Positions 6,936-63,903 of a stretch of 64,000 nt of DNA are shown here, piece by piece; position 1 is the first letter of the stretch; the number at the start of each line of letters is the position of its first letter. The DNA comes from Minisyncoccota bacterium. Lineage in GTDB: Bacteria; Patescibacteriota; Minisyncoccia; Phycocordibacterales; VMEP01. Under the pieces are notes generated by a model. It searched no databases. It was not told the origin of the DNA and saw only the letters and a program-made list of their open reading frames with translations. A program made the position numbers and the translations under genes. Location: positions 5,103-69,102 of the forward strand of contig JBAZUR010000003.1 of NCBI GenBank assembly GCA_041661305.1, in the 5' to 3' direction.

Positions 6936-7008
6936 CCGCCCATAGCTCAGTTGGTAGAGCAGCTCCCTTTTAAGGAGAGGGTCGCAGGTTCGACTCCTGC
7001 TGGGCGGA
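6936..7008 (+). tRNA. tRNA-Lys (anticodon TTT)
   Basis: Cloverleaf folded by hand. Acceptor stem CCGCCCA/TGGGCGG, D-arm GCTCAGTTGGTAGAGC, anticodon loop CTTTTAA, T-arm GCAGGTTCGACTCCTGC. CCA is not encoded. Confidence 0.85.
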
Positions 7009-7032
7009 CAAGGTTAAACTAAATAGGCTGTT

Positions 7033-8002: not shown

Positions 8003-8890
8003 TTAATTGATTGTTGTAACAGTTTTTCCTTCGCGGTCTAAGATTCGAACAACGTCACCGCTCTTCCAAAGTTCTTGGTTACTACCAAGATAGACCATCC
8101 ATGATGGTTCATAGAAATTAGAATCTGTATTATGGTCGGATACACAACCGTTATAACTAGCGTGTTCTTCAATGAAAGTGTTGCAGTTTGGGCCACCTCC
8201 TTCCGGGATTTGGCTGGCGTTTGTCACAGTTGTGCAAACGGGCAAATTACTTACAAAAGAAATGCAGGCTGGGTGTGGGGCATAGCGAGATAAGTTTTCA
8301 GCGGTAATAATTCCTGGGCAGTTTTTAGAGAGAGGAGGAACAAATTTCTGGAATTGTGCGAGATAGCCACTGCAAATATTTTGACGGAATGAAACTCCGA
8401 CTGGAGATTGTCCACTTATAATGTGTGCTGTTTCTCCTGGTCTTAGAACTATGTTTGATGCCTCGCGCACTTCACCGGAAACAAACAAGCTAACACCACT
8501 ACCTATCGTTGCTGCTGTGCCGTTTTCAGTGACTATGCGCCATCCTGTAATGTTTAGAATAGCATCGCTTTTGTTTGTAATATTCAAATATTCTTTTGAT
8601 GGGGAAAATTCTTTAAGTGATGACCCACTTGTTTTGATTGAAGTGCGATAGTTTGAAGAAACAAAATTTTTAGTTCCAAGGCGGAAATTAAAATCTAATG
8701 CTGGAAGAGTTCCGTATATTTCGCCAGTATCAAGTGGGGAAGGGGCTCTCAGAAAAGGACCTTTGCTAGCTTCCATTCTTGAAGGACCACCAGAAAAAAA
8801 CCACATAAACCATAAGGCCACTATAATCAAAACAATAATCATTGCATCACTCCTTAGTTTCATTTGAAAAGTTTTTGATGAGTAGGACAA
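8003..8890 (-). CDS. Hypothetical exported protein (N-terminal membrane anchor; possible lamin-tail-like beta domain)
   Basis: N-terminal transmembrane segment MIIVLIIVALWFMWFF. No recognisable catalytic motifs. Confidence 0.45.
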   Translation of the reverse strand: MSYSSKTFQMKLRSDAMIIVLIIVALWFMWFFSGGPSRMEASKGPFLRAPSPLDTGEIYGTLPALDFNFRLGTKNFVSSNYRTSIKTSGSSLKEFSPSKEYLNITNKSDAILNITGWRIVTENGTAATIGSGVSLFVSGEVREASNIVLRPGETAHIISGQSPVGVSFRQNICSGYLAQFQKFVPPLSKNCPGIITAENLSRYAPHPACISFVSNLPVCTTVTNASQIPEGGGPNCNTFIEEHASYNGCVSDHNTDSNFYEPSWMVYLGSNQELWKSGDVVRILDREGKTVTTIN

Positions 8891-9777
8891 AAATGGGAAC
8901 TTCTTCCTCCAATCATCTTTCTTTTTATTATACCATCACACTCTTTTTTACTGCACATTTCCCCTGTACGACGATAGGCATTATGCTTTTCTTGAAATTT
9001 TCCTTTTTCGCCAAAGATATTTCTATAATCAGACATAGAGTCTCCACCAAAAGAAATACCGCTTTTTAGAACCCTCTTCATTTCTAGGTATAGCGTGTTT
9101 ATTTTCGGTGCACTGATTTTTGAAACCTGTGATTCTGGGTGGATGCCCGCGCGCCAAAGCATTTCATCTGAGTAAATATTGCCAATACCAGCAACGGTTC
9201 GCTGGTCGAGGAGCACAGGTTTAATTTTCCCACGAGGACGGGTAGCGAGACGTGCAGTAAATTTTTTTAAAGTGAAATTATTCTCCAATGGTTCTGGTCC
9301 TAGATGAGAAAGTTGTGGAGAGTTTTCTATGTTTTTAGAATTTTCTAAATCAAAACGTCCAAATTTTCGCGTATCAGAAAAAACAATTTTATTTCCAGAA
9401 GACAAAGACAAAACGACATGAGCGAATCTGTTGAAAGGGTCATTAAGGGGACTCTTTTTGTCTACAGGTCTCCATTTACCATTTTCTATCTGCCATTTTC
9501 CATACAGAAGGTGACCAGTCATTCTCATATGCACAATAAAAGCTTTTCCGTTTGAAAGAATAAAAATTATGTTTTTACCGCGCCTAGAAACAGAAATAAT
9601 TTTTGCCCCAACGAGAGCTTTTTTAAAATTTAAAAAAGTGGCACCACTTGAGAGAGTGGGACTCGCGGATTGGTGGAACATTTTAGGCCAGTCGGTCCAA
9701 ATATCTTTTATTGTTTGTTTTGGTAATACACGAGAAAGACCAGAAACGGTGGTTTGTACTTCGGGGAGCTCTGGCAT
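8860..9777 (-). CDS. mutM: Formamidopyrimidine-DNA glycosylase (Fpg/MutM/Nei family)
   Basis: The hallmark N-terminus MPELPEVQ and a C-terminal zinc finger (C..C...C..H). Confidence 0.85.
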   Translation of the reverse strand: MPELPEVQTTVSGLSRVLPKQTIKDIWTDWPKMFHQSASPTLSSGATFLNFKKALVGAKIISVSRRGKNIIFILSNGKAFIVHMRMTGHLLYGKWQIENGKWRPVDKKSPLNDPFNRFAHVVLSLSSGNKIVFSDTRKFGRFDLENSKNIENSPQLSHLGPEPLENNFTLKKFTARLATRPRGKIKPVLLDQRTVAGIGNIYSDEMLWRAGIHPESQVSKISAPKINTLYLEMKRVLKSGISFGGDSMSDYRNIFGEKGKFQEKHNAYRRTGEMCSKKECDGIIKRKMIGGRSSHFCPTHQKLFK

Positions 9778-12739: not shown

Positions 12740-12956
12740 GGAGGGAGGAAAAAAAGAGGGGGGATCGGTCACGAATAATTTTGAAGACATATTAGTTCAT
12801 CGGTCACGAGTTACTAAATTTTTATTTCGCTTTGTTCGAAGTAGTTTCTCGGACATAATCAGTAATCGCCTCTCGCATTGCTATGCTCGAAACCTACACT
12901 CGCTCTTCGCGAGTTGCGGCCCGCGGTTCGGTTCCTGCCGAGACAAGATAGTAAAA

Positions 12957-15692: not shown

Positions 15693-15885
15693 TGTTGCTA
15701 CTATTTAAGCGAGGGGTGAGATTCGGTCACGAGTAAATTTCCTGGCGGAAATTTCTCTCGACCCCAGCTCGCCATTTTTGCCTTTGCTTCGCAAAACAAA
15801 AATAAGGCTGTGCTTTTCGAATCTCACACGCGAGCAAAGCAGTTTGCTCGCTCCCATCCGCAGCTTTTCGCTGCGCTTCAATTTG

Positions 15886-19686: not shown

Positions 19687-20031
19687 ATGGAATTATCAAT
19701 TTACAAACAAAAAACCAAAAACAGACTAGAGAGAATTCTTCGTTGGTTTGACCGTGACCCAGAAAGAATCGAGCTTCGGGCGACCAGAGATTGGAACCTA
19801 ATGCTTATATTTTTTATTCTTATTAATATATTAATATTAATAACGACGACCATTTTCTTTTTTTCTATAAACAAAAGAGAGCTTCTCCCTGTATCTGAAT
19901 TGTCGACTGATTCAATTGCTCGACTTGATAAAGGAAAGGTTGAGAAGGCTGCGGGTGTTATTGAAAAAAGGGAGGCTGGACTTCAGGATCTTTTAAAGTC
20001 ACCACCAAAAATTGTTGACCCTTCTCTTTAG
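19687..20031 (+). CDS. Hypothetical small membrane protein (possibly part of the pilus operon)
   Basis: Single transmembrane segment. No recognisable motifs. Confidence 0.3.
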   Translation: MELSIYKQKTKNRLERILRWFDRDPERIELRATRDWNLMLIFFILINILILITTTIFFFSINKRELLPVSELSTDSIARLDKGKVEKAAGVIEKREAGLQDLLKSPPKIVDPSL

Positions 20032-20055
20032 ACAGGGTAGAGTCGTTGAGTGCTT

Positions 20056-20130
20056 GCCCCTGTAGTTCAATGGATAGAACTGCGGACTTCTAAGCCGTTA
20101 ATGGAGGTTCGATTCCTCCCGGGGGCACCA
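20056..20130 (+). tRNA. tRNA-Arg (anticodon TCT), CCA encoded
   Basis: Acceptor GCCCCTG/CGGGGGC, anticodon loop CTTCTAA, T-arm GGAGGTTCGATTCCTCC, terminal CCA. Confidence 0.85.
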
Positions 20131-20142
20131 AATAAAAATACT

Positions 20143-20296
20143 CGCTTAAGCGAGTGTTTTTATTTGGTGCCAGCCGGAGCGCGACGGCGCGAGGCGGGGT
20201 CGAGCAAATTTCTAGCAAGAAATTATGCGTGACCACCAAAGAGCTTAAGCGAGTGTTTTTATTTGGTGCCAGCTGGAGCGCGACGGCGCGTTAACC
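20143..20296. repeat. Two direct copies of a ~50-bp unit (cttaagcgagtgtttttatttggtgccagcYggagcgcgacggcgcg) at 20143-20192 and 20247-20296. Each contains an inverted copy of the tRNA-Arg(TCT) 3' end.
   Basis: 49 of 50 nt identical between the two copies. The first copy forms a cruciform with the tRNA 3' end (ggcaccaaataaaaa...tttttatttggtgcc). Confidence 0.75.
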
Positions 20297-20324
20297 CGTG
20301 ACCTTCTCGAAGGGCTTAGTTTAT

Positions 20325-20400
20325 TGGTGGGCGGTACAGGACTCGAACCTGTGACCTTCTCGGTGTAAACGAGTTGCTCTACCAACTGAGCTAACCGCCC
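20325..20400 (-). tRNA. tRNA-Val (anticodon TAC), CCA encoded
   Basis: Reverse complement gives GGGCGGTTAGCTCAGTTGGTAGAGC...anticodon loop TTTACAC...ACAGGTTCGAGTCCTGTACCGCCCACCA. Confidence 0.85.
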
Positions 20401-20563
20401 ACCAATAAACGAAACACTTTTTGTAAACGGGAAAAGTGCAACTTTTCCCTCCACCAACTGAGCTAACCGTCCTAAACAAATTTAGGGTACCGTATCTTGC
20501 AAGATAAATCAATTTGCTTAGAGAAAACTTGCTCTGTATTTAATCCCGTCTATAATTTCACAA

Positions 20564-22816: not shown

Positions 22817-22901
22817 GCCCAGGTGGAGAAATTGGTAGACTTACTACCTTGAGGTGGTAGCGCCGCAAGGCATGGGGGTTCGAGTCCCCCCCTGGGCACC
22901 A
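22817..22901 (+). tRNA. tRNA-Leu (anticodon GAG), class II with long variable arm, CCA encoded
   Basis: Acceptor GCCCAGG/CCTGGGC, anticodon stem CTACC/GGTAG with loop TTGAGGT, T-arm GGGGGTTCGAGTCCCCC, CCA. Confidence 0.85.
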
Positions 22902-22911
22902 AAAATATAAT

Positions 22912-22937
22912 CCGGCTTCGTGCCGGTTTTTATTTTT
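22912..22937 (+). terminator. Terminator (ccggcttcgtgccgg + T-run) after tRNA-Leu
   Basis: Inverted repeat plus T-run. Confidence 0.65.
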
Positions 22938-23040
22938 GGTCTAGGGGAATCGAAAGCCGGAGTGATATTTCAAAAAGTTTTCCTCCTTACTTTTTGAAAT
23001 CACGAGGTGGGGTCGAGAGTACTTATGAGCGAAGCGAATT

Positions 23041-23074
23041 AGTAACTCGTGACCGAGTCCCCCCCCTTGGGCAC
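23041..23074. repeat. Duplicate of the tRNA-Leu 3' end (cgagtccccccccttgggcac) fused to the junction motif ttagtaactcgtgac
   Basis: 19/21 match to tRNA-Leu positions 22875-22898. The adjacent 18-mer is shared with 12797-12825 (reverse complement) and, partially, with 15736-15750. Confidence 0.7.
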
Positions 23075-23283
23075 AAAGCGTTAAGAAAACATGCTAGGGA
23101 TAGCATGTTTTTAGCTTTGTGAGGCGGAGGTCGACGGACCGAGCCGGGCCGTCCACAGGTGTCCATCAACCACCGATGGACTTCGCGAAAATTTTCAGCA
23201 GAAAATTATCTGTGACCCAAAAACACAATAATGGACATGGCTAAGAAATTTTTACGAGAGACGACGAGTAAAAATGTTCTTAG

Positions 23284-25308: not shown

Positions 25309-25354
25309 AAATAACGAGACGAACGCGTATGCGTTCGGTGACTATATTTAGGGA

Positions 25355-25372
25355 GTGCCTATCGGGATTTGA
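25355..25372. repeat. Inverted 18-nt copy of the tRNA-His 3' end (gtgcctatcgggatttga)
   Basis: Perfect reverse complement of tRNA-His 25287-25304. Confidence 0.75.
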
Positions 25373-25469
25373 AAGACGGAGCCAGTACACAAGACGAGCG
25401 AAGCGAGTGCTTGTCGGCGAGTCCGGGGAGAAAGTTCTTAGCGAGTCTGCGAGCTTAGAAACTTGACCC

Positions 25470-25490
25470 CAAATCCCGATAGGCACCCCA
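25470..25490. repeat. Direct 21-nt copy of the tRNA-His 3' end including CCA (caaatcccgataggcacccca)
   Basis: Identical to 25288-25308. Together with the tRNA it brackets a ~165-bp GC-rich insert. Confidence 0.8.
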
Positions 25491-25540
25491 AATTCAATCC
25501 ATAACTTGACGGTTTTTGTGTTTATGGCGACACTGGGTTA

Positions 25541-31278: not shown

Positions 31279-31300
31279 AAAATTAAAAAAGCCGACAAAA

Positions 31301-31326
31301 AACCAAGGAAATCTCCTTGGTTTTTT
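31301..31326 (+). terminator. Terminator (aaccaaggaaatctccttggtt + T-run)
   Basis: Inverted repeat plus T-run. Confidence 0.7.
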
Positions 31327-31355
31327 GTTTTCTTGCCCCTATATCCACATTTTGC

Positions 31356-31469
31356 TCTTAAAAACATTGCGCAGGCTGGCGAGCCGAGCATATGATTTAG
31401 GCGAAATCATGTCGCGCGCCCGTCCATTAACGCGCGACTCTTTCAGTAGGCGGATATGCGCGTTTTTAA
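31356..31469. repeat. Copy 1 of a two-copy GC-rich intergenic element with 8-bp terminal inverted repeats TTAAAAAC/GTTTTTAA (miniature inverted-repeat-like, or a small structured RNA)
   Basis: The 5' ~38 nt and the 3' 22 nt (aggcggatatgcgcgtttttaa) are shared with 63808-63878. The internal part has hairpins (atgattt/aaatcat and gtcgcgcg/cgcgcgac). Confidence 0.55.
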
Positions 31470-31488
31470 GGGCAAAATAAAAGAGACA

Positions 31489-31517
31489 TTGACCTTCTGG
31501 GTGATAAGCGGTAGAGT
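31489..31517 (+). promoter_or_regulatory. Sigma-70-like promoter (TTGACC - 17 nt - TAGAGT) upstream of secE, followed by a short GC hairpin plus T-run in the leader
   Basis: Near-consensus -35 and -10 hexamers with a 17-nt spacer. A gcccgagggggc + ttttt hairpin lies at 31527-31544. Confidence 0.45.
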
Positions 31518-63706: not shown

Positions 63707-63807
63707 ATCGGGCTATTGTAAGAAAAAAAGCCGTTATGTCAACGTTTAGGATAATTATGGAATGCAGAATTAAGGAATTTTGCATTTTGATATCTCCGGC
63801 TTTTATT

Positions 63808-63878
63808 TTTTAAAACATTACGGAGCCTGGCGAGGCGAGTATAGCAATCCGCCAGCAGGCGGATATGCGCGTTTTTAA
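63808..63878. repeat. Copy 2 of the TTAAAAAC...GTTTTTAA GC-rich element (short form)
   Basis: The 5' tttaaaacattacggagcctggcgaggcgagtata and the 3' 22-mer aggcggatatgcgcgtttttaa match copy 1 (31356-31469). Confidence 0.55.
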
Positions 63879-63903
63879 AAACAAAGGCCAAAAAGAAAGA
63901 TTA

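Follow-up and report, generated by a model that had tools for sequence, protein, structure and literature searches.

The gap between the SIMPL gene and secE in the stretch of DNA analysed here (64,000 nucleotides, referred to as the window) contains an intergenic element that recurs between recA and efp, and raises the question whether such a sequence is a regulatory site of the adjacent genes, a mobile repeat or a structured RNA. A preliminary description of the locus preferred a mobile miniature inverted-repeat element (MITE) or an autonomous structured RNA over a gene-specific site. That preference holds insofar as the element is multi-copy, has unrelated neighbours and a covarying fold, and is gained, lost and replaced between relatives, but it is not a classical MITE: its termini vary, no target-site duplication is found and there is no conserved terminal inverted repeat (TIR) of the transposase type. 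Our own reading, which we hold tentatively, is that the family consists of non-autonomous elements, integrative or mobile, that are recognised in the form of a folded single strand. The tRNA-linked copies, in which tRNA 3' ends are duplicated, are its most informative feature.

Extent, fold and copies of the element

The 22-mer AGGCGGATATGCGCGTTTTTAA occurs in the window only at 31448-31469 (copy 1) and 63857-63878 (copy 2), as first described. Allowing as many as three mismatches revealed no further site, and none of 100 shuffles contained any match. The 5' block AGSCTGGCGAGSCGAGYATA is likewise present in both copies (31373-31392 and 63824-63843; 0.01 expected), and the degenerate form of this block occurs exactly twice in the window. 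The cores had been given as ~55 and ~12 nt long; in the alignment, copy 1 and copy 2 are set apart by an insertion of 42 nt. A closing helix of 17–19 bp, P1, has as its inner end the 8-bp repeats that the preliminary description took for the termini. In copy 1, P1 pairs 31349-31365 with 31462-31478 (17 bp with one G-U; arms AUUUUGCUCUUAAAAAC and GUUUUUAAGGGCAAAAU) and in copy 2, 63798-63816 with 63871-63889 (19 positions with three mismatches; arms GGCUUUUAUUUUUUAAAAC and GUUUUUAAAAACAAAGGCC). Because these helices are longer than 8 bp, copy 1 extends over 31349-31478 and copy 2 over 63798-63889, both on the + strand. The P1 arms of the two copies are unlike in sequence, and complementarity is kept within each pair.

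RNAalifold predicted a three-way junction from 25 sequences, with the overall shape of a Y in which P1 is capped by P2a/P2 and P3. P1 is long and its innermost pairs, AAAAC/GUUUU, are invariant. P2a has the form U-R-C/G-Y-A, the R and Y of which covary (18 G-C, 7 A-U), and is separated from P2, a variable hairpin, by an internal loop G-S-A/G-A, where CG(S)AG/CGAG forms a tandem G-A. P3 reads GCAAUC...GAU(A)UGC, with a bulged A and a loop that is mostly AGCA. The imperfect complementarity seen earlier between the inner 5' and 3' blocks (cgagcatat and cgcgcatat) gives way in this family model to a different arrangement, in which P2a contains the GCA/UGC pairing and AUAUGC is part of P3. P2a/P2 of copy 1 spans 31368-31390, and its P3 domain is enlarged by two extra hairpins, predicted at ~31392-31410 and ~31411-31438 in agreement with the two internal hairpins first noticed in the long copy. 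The three-way-junction core of copy 2 is at 63817-63870.

Compensatory change supports this structure. Based on 23 trimmed sequences and an explicit structure, 97.4% of cells are paired and 14 of the 29 pairs show double changes; these pairing values were reached by 0 of 500 shuffles, and slid partners pair in only 30–53%. Among 37 distinct homologues taken from CPR metagenomes, double (compensatory) changes affect 25 of the 29 pairs and the paired fraction of cells is 97.5%, in an alignment that was fitted to the structure model and leans toward that structure. The structure and covariation check that had been proposed for the locus thus returned a conserved three-way junction. The core helices contain 12 G-U cells in the + sense against at most 4 non-pairs; therefore, the core folds in one particular strand. 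In P1, G-U and A-C are about equally frequent, and this helix behaves as a symmetric inverted repeat. About 25 unpaired nucleotides are conserved among hosts whose EF-P proteins are only 63–70% identical, and the A-tract and U-tract that border the core are invariant (a run of U4-5 follows it). The predicted stability is −35 to −70 kcal/mol. We incline, with some reserve, to regard the ~55-nt core as the conserved and functional part. A conserved minus-strand reading frame (KNAHIRLL...RLxxLRNV) was considered as a small protein and rejected, because the variation consists of compensatory changes in stems and of insertions located in hairpins.

At many loci P1 is prolonged by a conserved 5' AGCGA and 3' GAGCG, which reads as two Watson-Crick pairs and a tandem G-A. 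A kink-turn was rejected for this flank, which lacks the 3-nt bulge or C-helix and is fitted by a plain in-helix tandem G-A. A perfect DnaA-box-like 9-mer, TTATCCACA, lies at a fixed distance 3' in three homologous loci (L023, L024 and L052; 6–12 nt after GAGCG), and its equivalent in L022 is TTGTCCACA. Immediately 5' of the P1 arm of copy 1 is TATATCCACA (31343-31352).

Two forms of free copies, labelled 'A-type', are present. Copy 1, the long form, was identified from its sequence, fold and a match to the R2 covariance model (31352-31474, 50 bits, E 1.7e-9). The long form is also found at 9528-9704 of L031, a near-identical contig, ~5 kb past the end of the window, with both extra hairpins and the conserved loop CGUCCAUU. 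Copy 2, the short form, scores 97 bits with R1 and 94.5 bits with R2, and has orthologues in L031 and L053.

The family is larger than the two copies first described: at least three copies in the window are supported by covariance models, and about eight are recognised by reading. Copy 3 (20148-20243, +) starts 18 nt after tRNA-Arg(tct) and was found from its sequence, from the palindrome I2 and from covariance matches at 20159-20243 (R1, 35 bits; then R2, 60 bits, E 7e-12). It is followed in tandem by a truncated copy, 20243-20290 (+), which consists of a 5' arm and P2 only (direct repeat D1, 48 nt, 98%). Two copies have weak R2 matches. One (15700-15828, −), also apparent from sequence and repeats, lies 57 nt after tRNA-Ser(tga) and scores 18 bits (E 0.1) over 15716-15828; the other, a diverged copy with an insertion between P2 and P3 (23104-23226, +; 15 bits, E 0.45), is downstream of the tRNA-Leu unit, and its P2 and P3 align with those of other tRNA-linked copies. 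Further copies were identified by reading and repeat analysis after tRNA-Leu, tRNA-His and tRNA-Arg(gcg). The copy at 22934-23078 (+), recognised from its sequence and direct repeats, follows tRNA-Leu(gag) and a terminator; it has an expanded P2 and a core ending in GUGACC, is the orthologue of unit 2 on L058, and gave no significant covariance-model match. The copy after tRNA-His (25352-25492, +; D1 100%, I1/I2 95%) also gave none, and its core homology (ACGGAG...CGAG) was judged by eye. After tRNA-Arg(gcg) and its terminator lies a degenerate copy with approximate boundaries 12765-12942 (−; inverted repeat I2, 18 nt, 94%), of which the 5' arm, 12942-12925, is complementary to the T-arm of the tRNA and the core includes CGAGCAUAGCAAU.

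Elements are ~80–180 nt in size and their hosts are Paceibacteria-type CPR bacteria. A scan of species genomes with a 19-mer returned, among chance matches, three true homologues in Parcubacteria/Paceibacterota MAGs. One of these carries a doubtful Saccharibacteria label: the EF-P encoded in that assembly is 70% identical to that of the window. A gapped pattern retrieved 33 loci from metagenomes, 28 of them real homologues, and covariance models located second copies on six other contigs. Partial copies accompany full ones, as a head-to-head pair in L028 and as inverted end fragments in L026 and L052. The density is about one copy per 8–20 kb. We found no copies in IMG/VR or in phage and plasmid collections, and a viral, phage or plasmid origin was rejected on these grounds. 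When the whole window was searched against Rfam 15, only tRNAs reached gathering scores; sensitive scans of copies 1 and 2 at E up to 10 yielded terminator-like or chance matches well below them. A full-text literature search did not return a description of the element. The family had not been catalogued before.

Turnover between relatives and duplicated tRNA 3' ends

Occupancy of the same gap differs between close relatives. The recA-efp gap is filled in the window, in L031 and in L053 (EF-P 91% identical), and empty in L054 (EF-P 88%), L055 and L056 (70% and 68% among the empty relatives), which are the vacant sites that the preliminary description had suggested looking for. L054 and L055 carry copies of the element in other gaps. 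Between SIMPL and secE, the long form of the window is replaced by a different short form in L057 (SIMPL 96% identical), of which the promoter flank is nearly identical to that of the window, and by a third subtype in L059; L058 has none (72% and 75% relatives, respectively). Some subtype of the element is therefore kept in this gap in three of four relatives. Point mutation cannot explain a replacement with near-identical flanks around unlike elements; the elements are exchanged or re-inserted. The family thus combines dispersed copies with insertion polymorphism among relatives, as a mobile repeat does. Target-site duplications, proposed earlier as a further check, do not flank the free copies, where no flanking direct repeat is significant. 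The recurrent AGCG on both sides of one subfamily is constant and not site-specific. A clean empty-site alignment was attempted and abandoned, since between genes the relative with 88% identity has diverged too far.

A distinct subtype is linked to tRNA genes. Five of the seven tRNA genes in the window carry a diverged copy of the element downstream in the same orientation (those of tRNA-His and tRNA-Arg(gcg) by reading). Co-oriented copies at most 60 nt from the tRNA are found for tRNA-Ser, tRNA-Arg and tRNA-Leu in the window, for tRNA-Ser in L040 (R2, 32 bits) and for tRNA-Val in L049 (R2, 29 bits). In these copies the 5' arm of P1 is the complement of the 3' part of the copy's own tRNA, and the core ends in GACC, after which the tRNA is copied from T-loop position 56/57 to its 3' end. 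The repeated tRNA 3' end is exact over 23 nt for tRNA-His and over 18–22 nt in L040 and L049, and measures 12–29 nt at tRNA-Leu and tRNA-Ser. At tRNA-His, the 3' end of the tRNA has its complement in the 5' arm (25352-25373), and the 3' arm (25470-25492) is the exact 23-nt repeat, from C56 in the T-loop to CCAAA. The direct repeats at tRNA-Leu are 22881-22903 and 23054-23078. At tRNA-Ser the core is followed by a replica of the T-loop, the T-stem and the acceptor 3' strand of the tRNA, and the upstream direct repeat has a score of 13 (p about 0). At tRNA-Arg(tct), the tRNA end and trailer form with the 5' arm of the element a spacer-free palindrome with 32-nt arms, 20116-20179. From the layout of arms and repeats, the order is therefore a tRNA with 3' end X, a spacer or terminator, X', the core, and X again. 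A significant upstream direct repeat is found in tRNA-linked copies only; the corresponding 'dumbbell' (an upstream direct copy of the 3' arm) was sought for the free copies and rejected. The tRNA 3' repeat and intact tRNA of a tRNA-gene integrative element are accordingly seen in the tRNA-linked subtype and not in copies 1 and 2.

Units are also stacked in tandem. The tRNA-Leu gene of L058 is followed by two of them, of which the distal one is orthologous to the unit in the window and the proximal one is extra; between them lies the old tRNA-Leu 3' end, displaced and decayed. As judged from the sequence, this layout is the picture expected from successive integrations at a tRNA gene. The displaced end (L058 2526-2548) contains a run of C-to-T differences from the functional copy (CCCCCCC to TTTTTT) that could reflect clustered deamination or rapid decay. 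In the window, a 17-nt copy of an internal segment of tRNA-Val, ending in the T-loop (20293-20309; D2, 94%), abuts the truncated copy at 20243-20290 and constitutes a second kind of T-loop junction. The tRNA-linked units (120–190 nt) contain no ORF, and hence no integrase.

Several features of the tRNA genes were noted alongside. ARAGORN called a 'tRNA-Stop' at 6936-7009 (+; anticodon tta, anticodon loop CUUUUAA), the body of which resembles tRNA-Lys(UUU); the call is therefore more likely to stem from a register shift of one base than from a UAA suppressor. The acceptor stem of tRNA-Val(tac) is lengthened by its leader and trailer (20310-20335 and 20394-20419) into a 26-nt inverted repeat. 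In L040, a tRNA cluster is followed by the GC-rich region 8481-9116. Long ORFs overlap there on the two strands, but the region has the look of a structured RNA gene or of inserted foreign DNA rather than of coding sequence.

P1 is thus made up of copy-specific sequence and is not a fixed terminal repeat; in tRNA-linked copies it reproduces, in duplex form, how the adjacent tRNA gene ends at its 3' side. These observations could be accounted for by the following mechanism. A recombinase or nuclease acting in trans would recognise the folded single strand, as in integron attC and CTX-phage attP, and would join the element to a matching target: for the tRNA-linked subtype, the T-loop of tRNA genes after GGTTC, and for the free subtype, AT-rich stretches that separate a terminator from the promoter following it. 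The tRNA would stay intact, with a displaced copy of its 3' end left downstream. In this scheme we infer the single-stranded DNA intermediate, the enzyme and any present-day activity, whereas the fold, the multiple copies, the turnover, the duplicated tRNA 3' ends and the stacking in tandem are observed. No recombinase, transposase or HUH gene adjoins any copy, and an autonomous parent between the two copies on L040 was rejected since the intervening gene encodes a CAP/SCP-like membrane protein and not a transposase. As the arms of tRNA-linked copies match their own tRNA, a single mobile unit would be insufficient without target-copying or many lineage-specific variants. The orientation of copies does not follow GC skew (23 against 15, with opposite copies on single contigs), which argues against a strict lagging-strand mechanism with single-stranded DNA of the IS200/IS605 kind; a bias of that kind is not supported.

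Genomic context and rival explanations

Free copies adjoin unrelated housekeeping genes, and all four arrangements of flanking-gene direction occur. Upstream of copy 1, the SIMPL gene ends in a canonical hairpin terminator (31295-31328), and 11 nt after copy 1 starts the promoter of secE, TTGACC-17-TAGAGT (31489-31517, +; conserved in L057 and L059); copy 1 is therefore outside the secE transcript. Copy 2 sits between the recA stop (about 63903) and the efp promoter identified by sequence scan, TTGACA-16-TACAAT (63715-63742, −). The orientation relative to flanking transcription differs, as noted before: copy 1 runs along secE and copy 2 is antisense to recA and efp. Since the elements are upstream of the next promoter and their neighbouring genes are unrelated, they do not have the placement of a riboswitch or cis-leader. 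The inserted free copies 1 and 2 are probably at most passive strong hairpins between transcription units.

L057 and L059 show hardly any change in the promoter and leader of secE. The promoter of tRNA-Arg(tct) (20015-20043) is the same as that of secE in hexamers and spacing. The SIMPL terminator hairpin appears to have been wholly replaced between close relatives: its stem is ccaaggaaatctccttgg in the window (31295-31328) and caggggtcacacccctg in L057 (1466-1482), with conserved A- and T-tract flanks. The −10 of efp (TACAAT) ends only 8 nt before the ATG (63707-63742, −), which suggests a leaderless or near-leaderless efp mRNA; the same promoter lies ~105 nt further upstream in L054.

The main rival, which we rate as real though on the doubtful side, is a family of structured non-coding RNAs with a role in cis or in trans. 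Folded into the three-way junction, the + transcript would bind a protein or small ligand with its junction and loops, or cleave itself; tRNA-linked copies would be co-transcribed, their arms modulating or mimicking tRNA 3' ends, and free copies would be paralogues made via read-through or unrecognised promoters. The very strong covariation, the restriction of core G-U pairs to the + sense and the invariance of ~25 unpaired positions across divergent hosts all favour an RNA; the conserved unpaired bases and strand-specific G-U fit a functional RNA at least as well as a mobile element. The architecture, a small three-way junction with conserved unpaired bases and scattered copies, would be compatible with a small self-cleaving ribozyme, and size and information content are like those of small ribozymes and aptamers. 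Every tRNA-linked copy is co-oriented with its tRNA, and in L049 a canonical terminator is positioned after the element, so the copy is inside the tRNA transcription unit and tRNA-linked copies are probably transcribed. The occupancy of five of seven tRNA genes could equally reflect a host function. The orientation bias toward the downstream gene (roughly 17 to 7) and the retention of some subtype between SIMPL and secE also favour an RNA. Against an RNA, however, no sigma70-like promoter reads into any of 36 copies, which leaves an autonomous RNA gene without evidence; AT-rich hexamers in the 5' arm of P1 were rejected as an own promoter, as they do not have the conserved A2/T6 positions. Copy 1 follows a strong terminator and precedes the next promoter, and at tRNA-Leu and tRNA-Arg a canonical terminator stands between the gene and its element. 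Displaced and decayed tRNA 3' ends, tandem accretion, truncated copies abutting pieces of tRNA and the exchange of subtypes at one site are not predicted by an RNA role, and no Rfam ribozyme or riboswitch was matched even in the sensitive scans. An improbable reading takes the elements as host-selected bidirectional terminators or insulators, built from A5-core-U5 (AAAAC...GUUUU) and a long helix, which would halt transcription arriving from either side between operons and whose copies would represent reuse of a design. The invariant A- and U-tracts and the very high predicted stability suit it. Convergent genes on the right end 20–45 nt from the element without another terminator (recA at copy 2; rnpA, gyrB, secY and rplB at other loci), and a sense promoter 9–45 nt downstream in 12 of 36 copies, against 2–4 for the other three positions or orientations, fits a terminator-then-promoter layout. 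Yet co-directional genes upstream end in canonical terminators of their own, a simple terminator scan does not call the elements despite the U4-5 run after the core, and the helix continues well past the U-tract, where terminated RNA could not use it. Neither the conserved unpaired bases nor the copy of the tRNA 3' end would be needed for termination. Any effect on termination may be incidental.

The elements have some traits of a classical MITE mobilised by a DDE transposase via terminal inverted repeats: they are short, lie between genes in multiple copies, have inverted termini and are present in some relatives and absent from others. In addition, some genomes contain several copies of equal P1 sequence, for example the two on L040. 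We nevertheless give this very little credence. Three different P1 arms occur in the window (AUUUUGCUCUUAAAAAC, GGCUUUUAUUUUUUAAAAC and UUUAUUUGGUGCC), with only the inner AAAAC/GUUUU in common; conservation peaks in the interior and not at the ends; the conserved AGCGA and GAGCG flanks are direct, not inverted, repeats; and the lack of target-site duplications and the tRNA sequence of the arms of tRNA-linked copies are also at odds with it. Taken together, the branched core, the copy-specific stem that can equal the end of the adjacent tRNA, polymorphism, swapping, accretion with decay of displaced tRNA ends and placement outside promoters argue against a gene-specific regulator or a simple terminator, and for the small integrative or mobile element that we tentatively prefer.

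Comparison with known systems and significance

Integron attC sites and the CTX-phage attP(+) site used by XerCD are folded single-strand sites in which a hairpin stem mimics a duplex site. As in these, structure and not stem sequence is conserved, the hairpin is long, imperfect and strand-specific, the stem has non-Watson-Crick features (here tandem G-A) and the structure of the tip varies. The order of the integrated tRNA-linked form, namely target copy, spacer, complement, tip and target copy, is also similar. Unlike attC, the element has no R boxes (RYYYAAC/GTTRRRY) except for AAC...GTT, and its tip is a three-way junction conserved in sequence rather than a variable loop. Its neighbours are housekeeping genes, and it lacks the integrase, attI and cassette array of an integron. 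We recognised no dif-like site.

Integrative elements directed to tRNA genes by tyrosine integrases of the T-loop sublocation resemble the tRNA-linked subtype in the T-loop-to-3'-end repeat, the intact tRNA and the fixed orientation, as well as in tandem stacking with decay of older displaced 3' ends (L058 compared with the window). In contrast to such elements, the 'island' is only ~120–190 nt, without integrase or cargo, and has an inverted tRNA end inside it; one core is combined with at least six tRNA species, and the right junction, GACC|RAAUCC, is not a normal hybrid core site.

With REP/REPIN-RAYT, ERIC, Correia, BOX and RUP repeats the element shares multiple intergenic copies in both orientations and long hairpin potential; like REP-type repeats it is lineage-specific, occupies operon boundaries and might incidentally influence termination or the stability of mRNA. 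It differs from REPINs and MITEs in that its arms vary within a genome and its branched tip is conserved across genera. The GTAG/CGTC tag of REP/REPIN is absent, and REP-type families do not duplicate tRNA 3' ends. No Y1 transposase domain, and thus no RAYT, is among the genes annotated on L053-L059.

The genome ends of parvoviruses and AAV are T-shaped hairpins, and AAV Rep binds GAGC repeats. By analogy, the long stem with two small hairpins, and the GAGC-like AGCGAG and GAGCG in or beside it, may be likened to AAV ends. The element differs in being bacterial and chromosomal, and no Rep/HUH gene, linear genome or evidence of flip/flop was found.

The element thus shares features with attC and attP sites, with tRNA-targeting elements and with REP/MITE repeats and lacks defining features of each. 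The chance is considerable that its nature is more unusual than that of a structured intergenic mobile repeat. It might represent an undescribed class, characterised by the Y core and a target-replicating stem (most strikingly of the final ~20 bp of tRNA genes, starting in the T-loop), either as a trans-mobilised, hairpin-guided mini-integrative element or as a catalytic or ligand-binding RNA tied to tRNA 3' ends; we put this forward guardedly. It is similarly conceivable, and no firmer, that the Y-core class has colonised most tRNA 3' flanks and many operon boundaries in Paceibacteria.

CPR bacteria (Patescibacteria) have tiny, dense genomes, and very little is known of their non-coding DNA, mobile elements and RNA biology. 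At about one per 8–20 kb, the element would rank among the most abundant non-coding features of CPR genomes. If it is mobile, a stem that copies the target would be a compact new solution to site choice, with a hairpin imitating the end of a tRNA gene, and in uncultured lineages the element would be a useful marker of how genomes have lately changed. Should it be an RNA, it would form a new class with ribozyme- or aptamer-like conservation. On either reading, the covariance model is ready for use in annotating CPR genomes.
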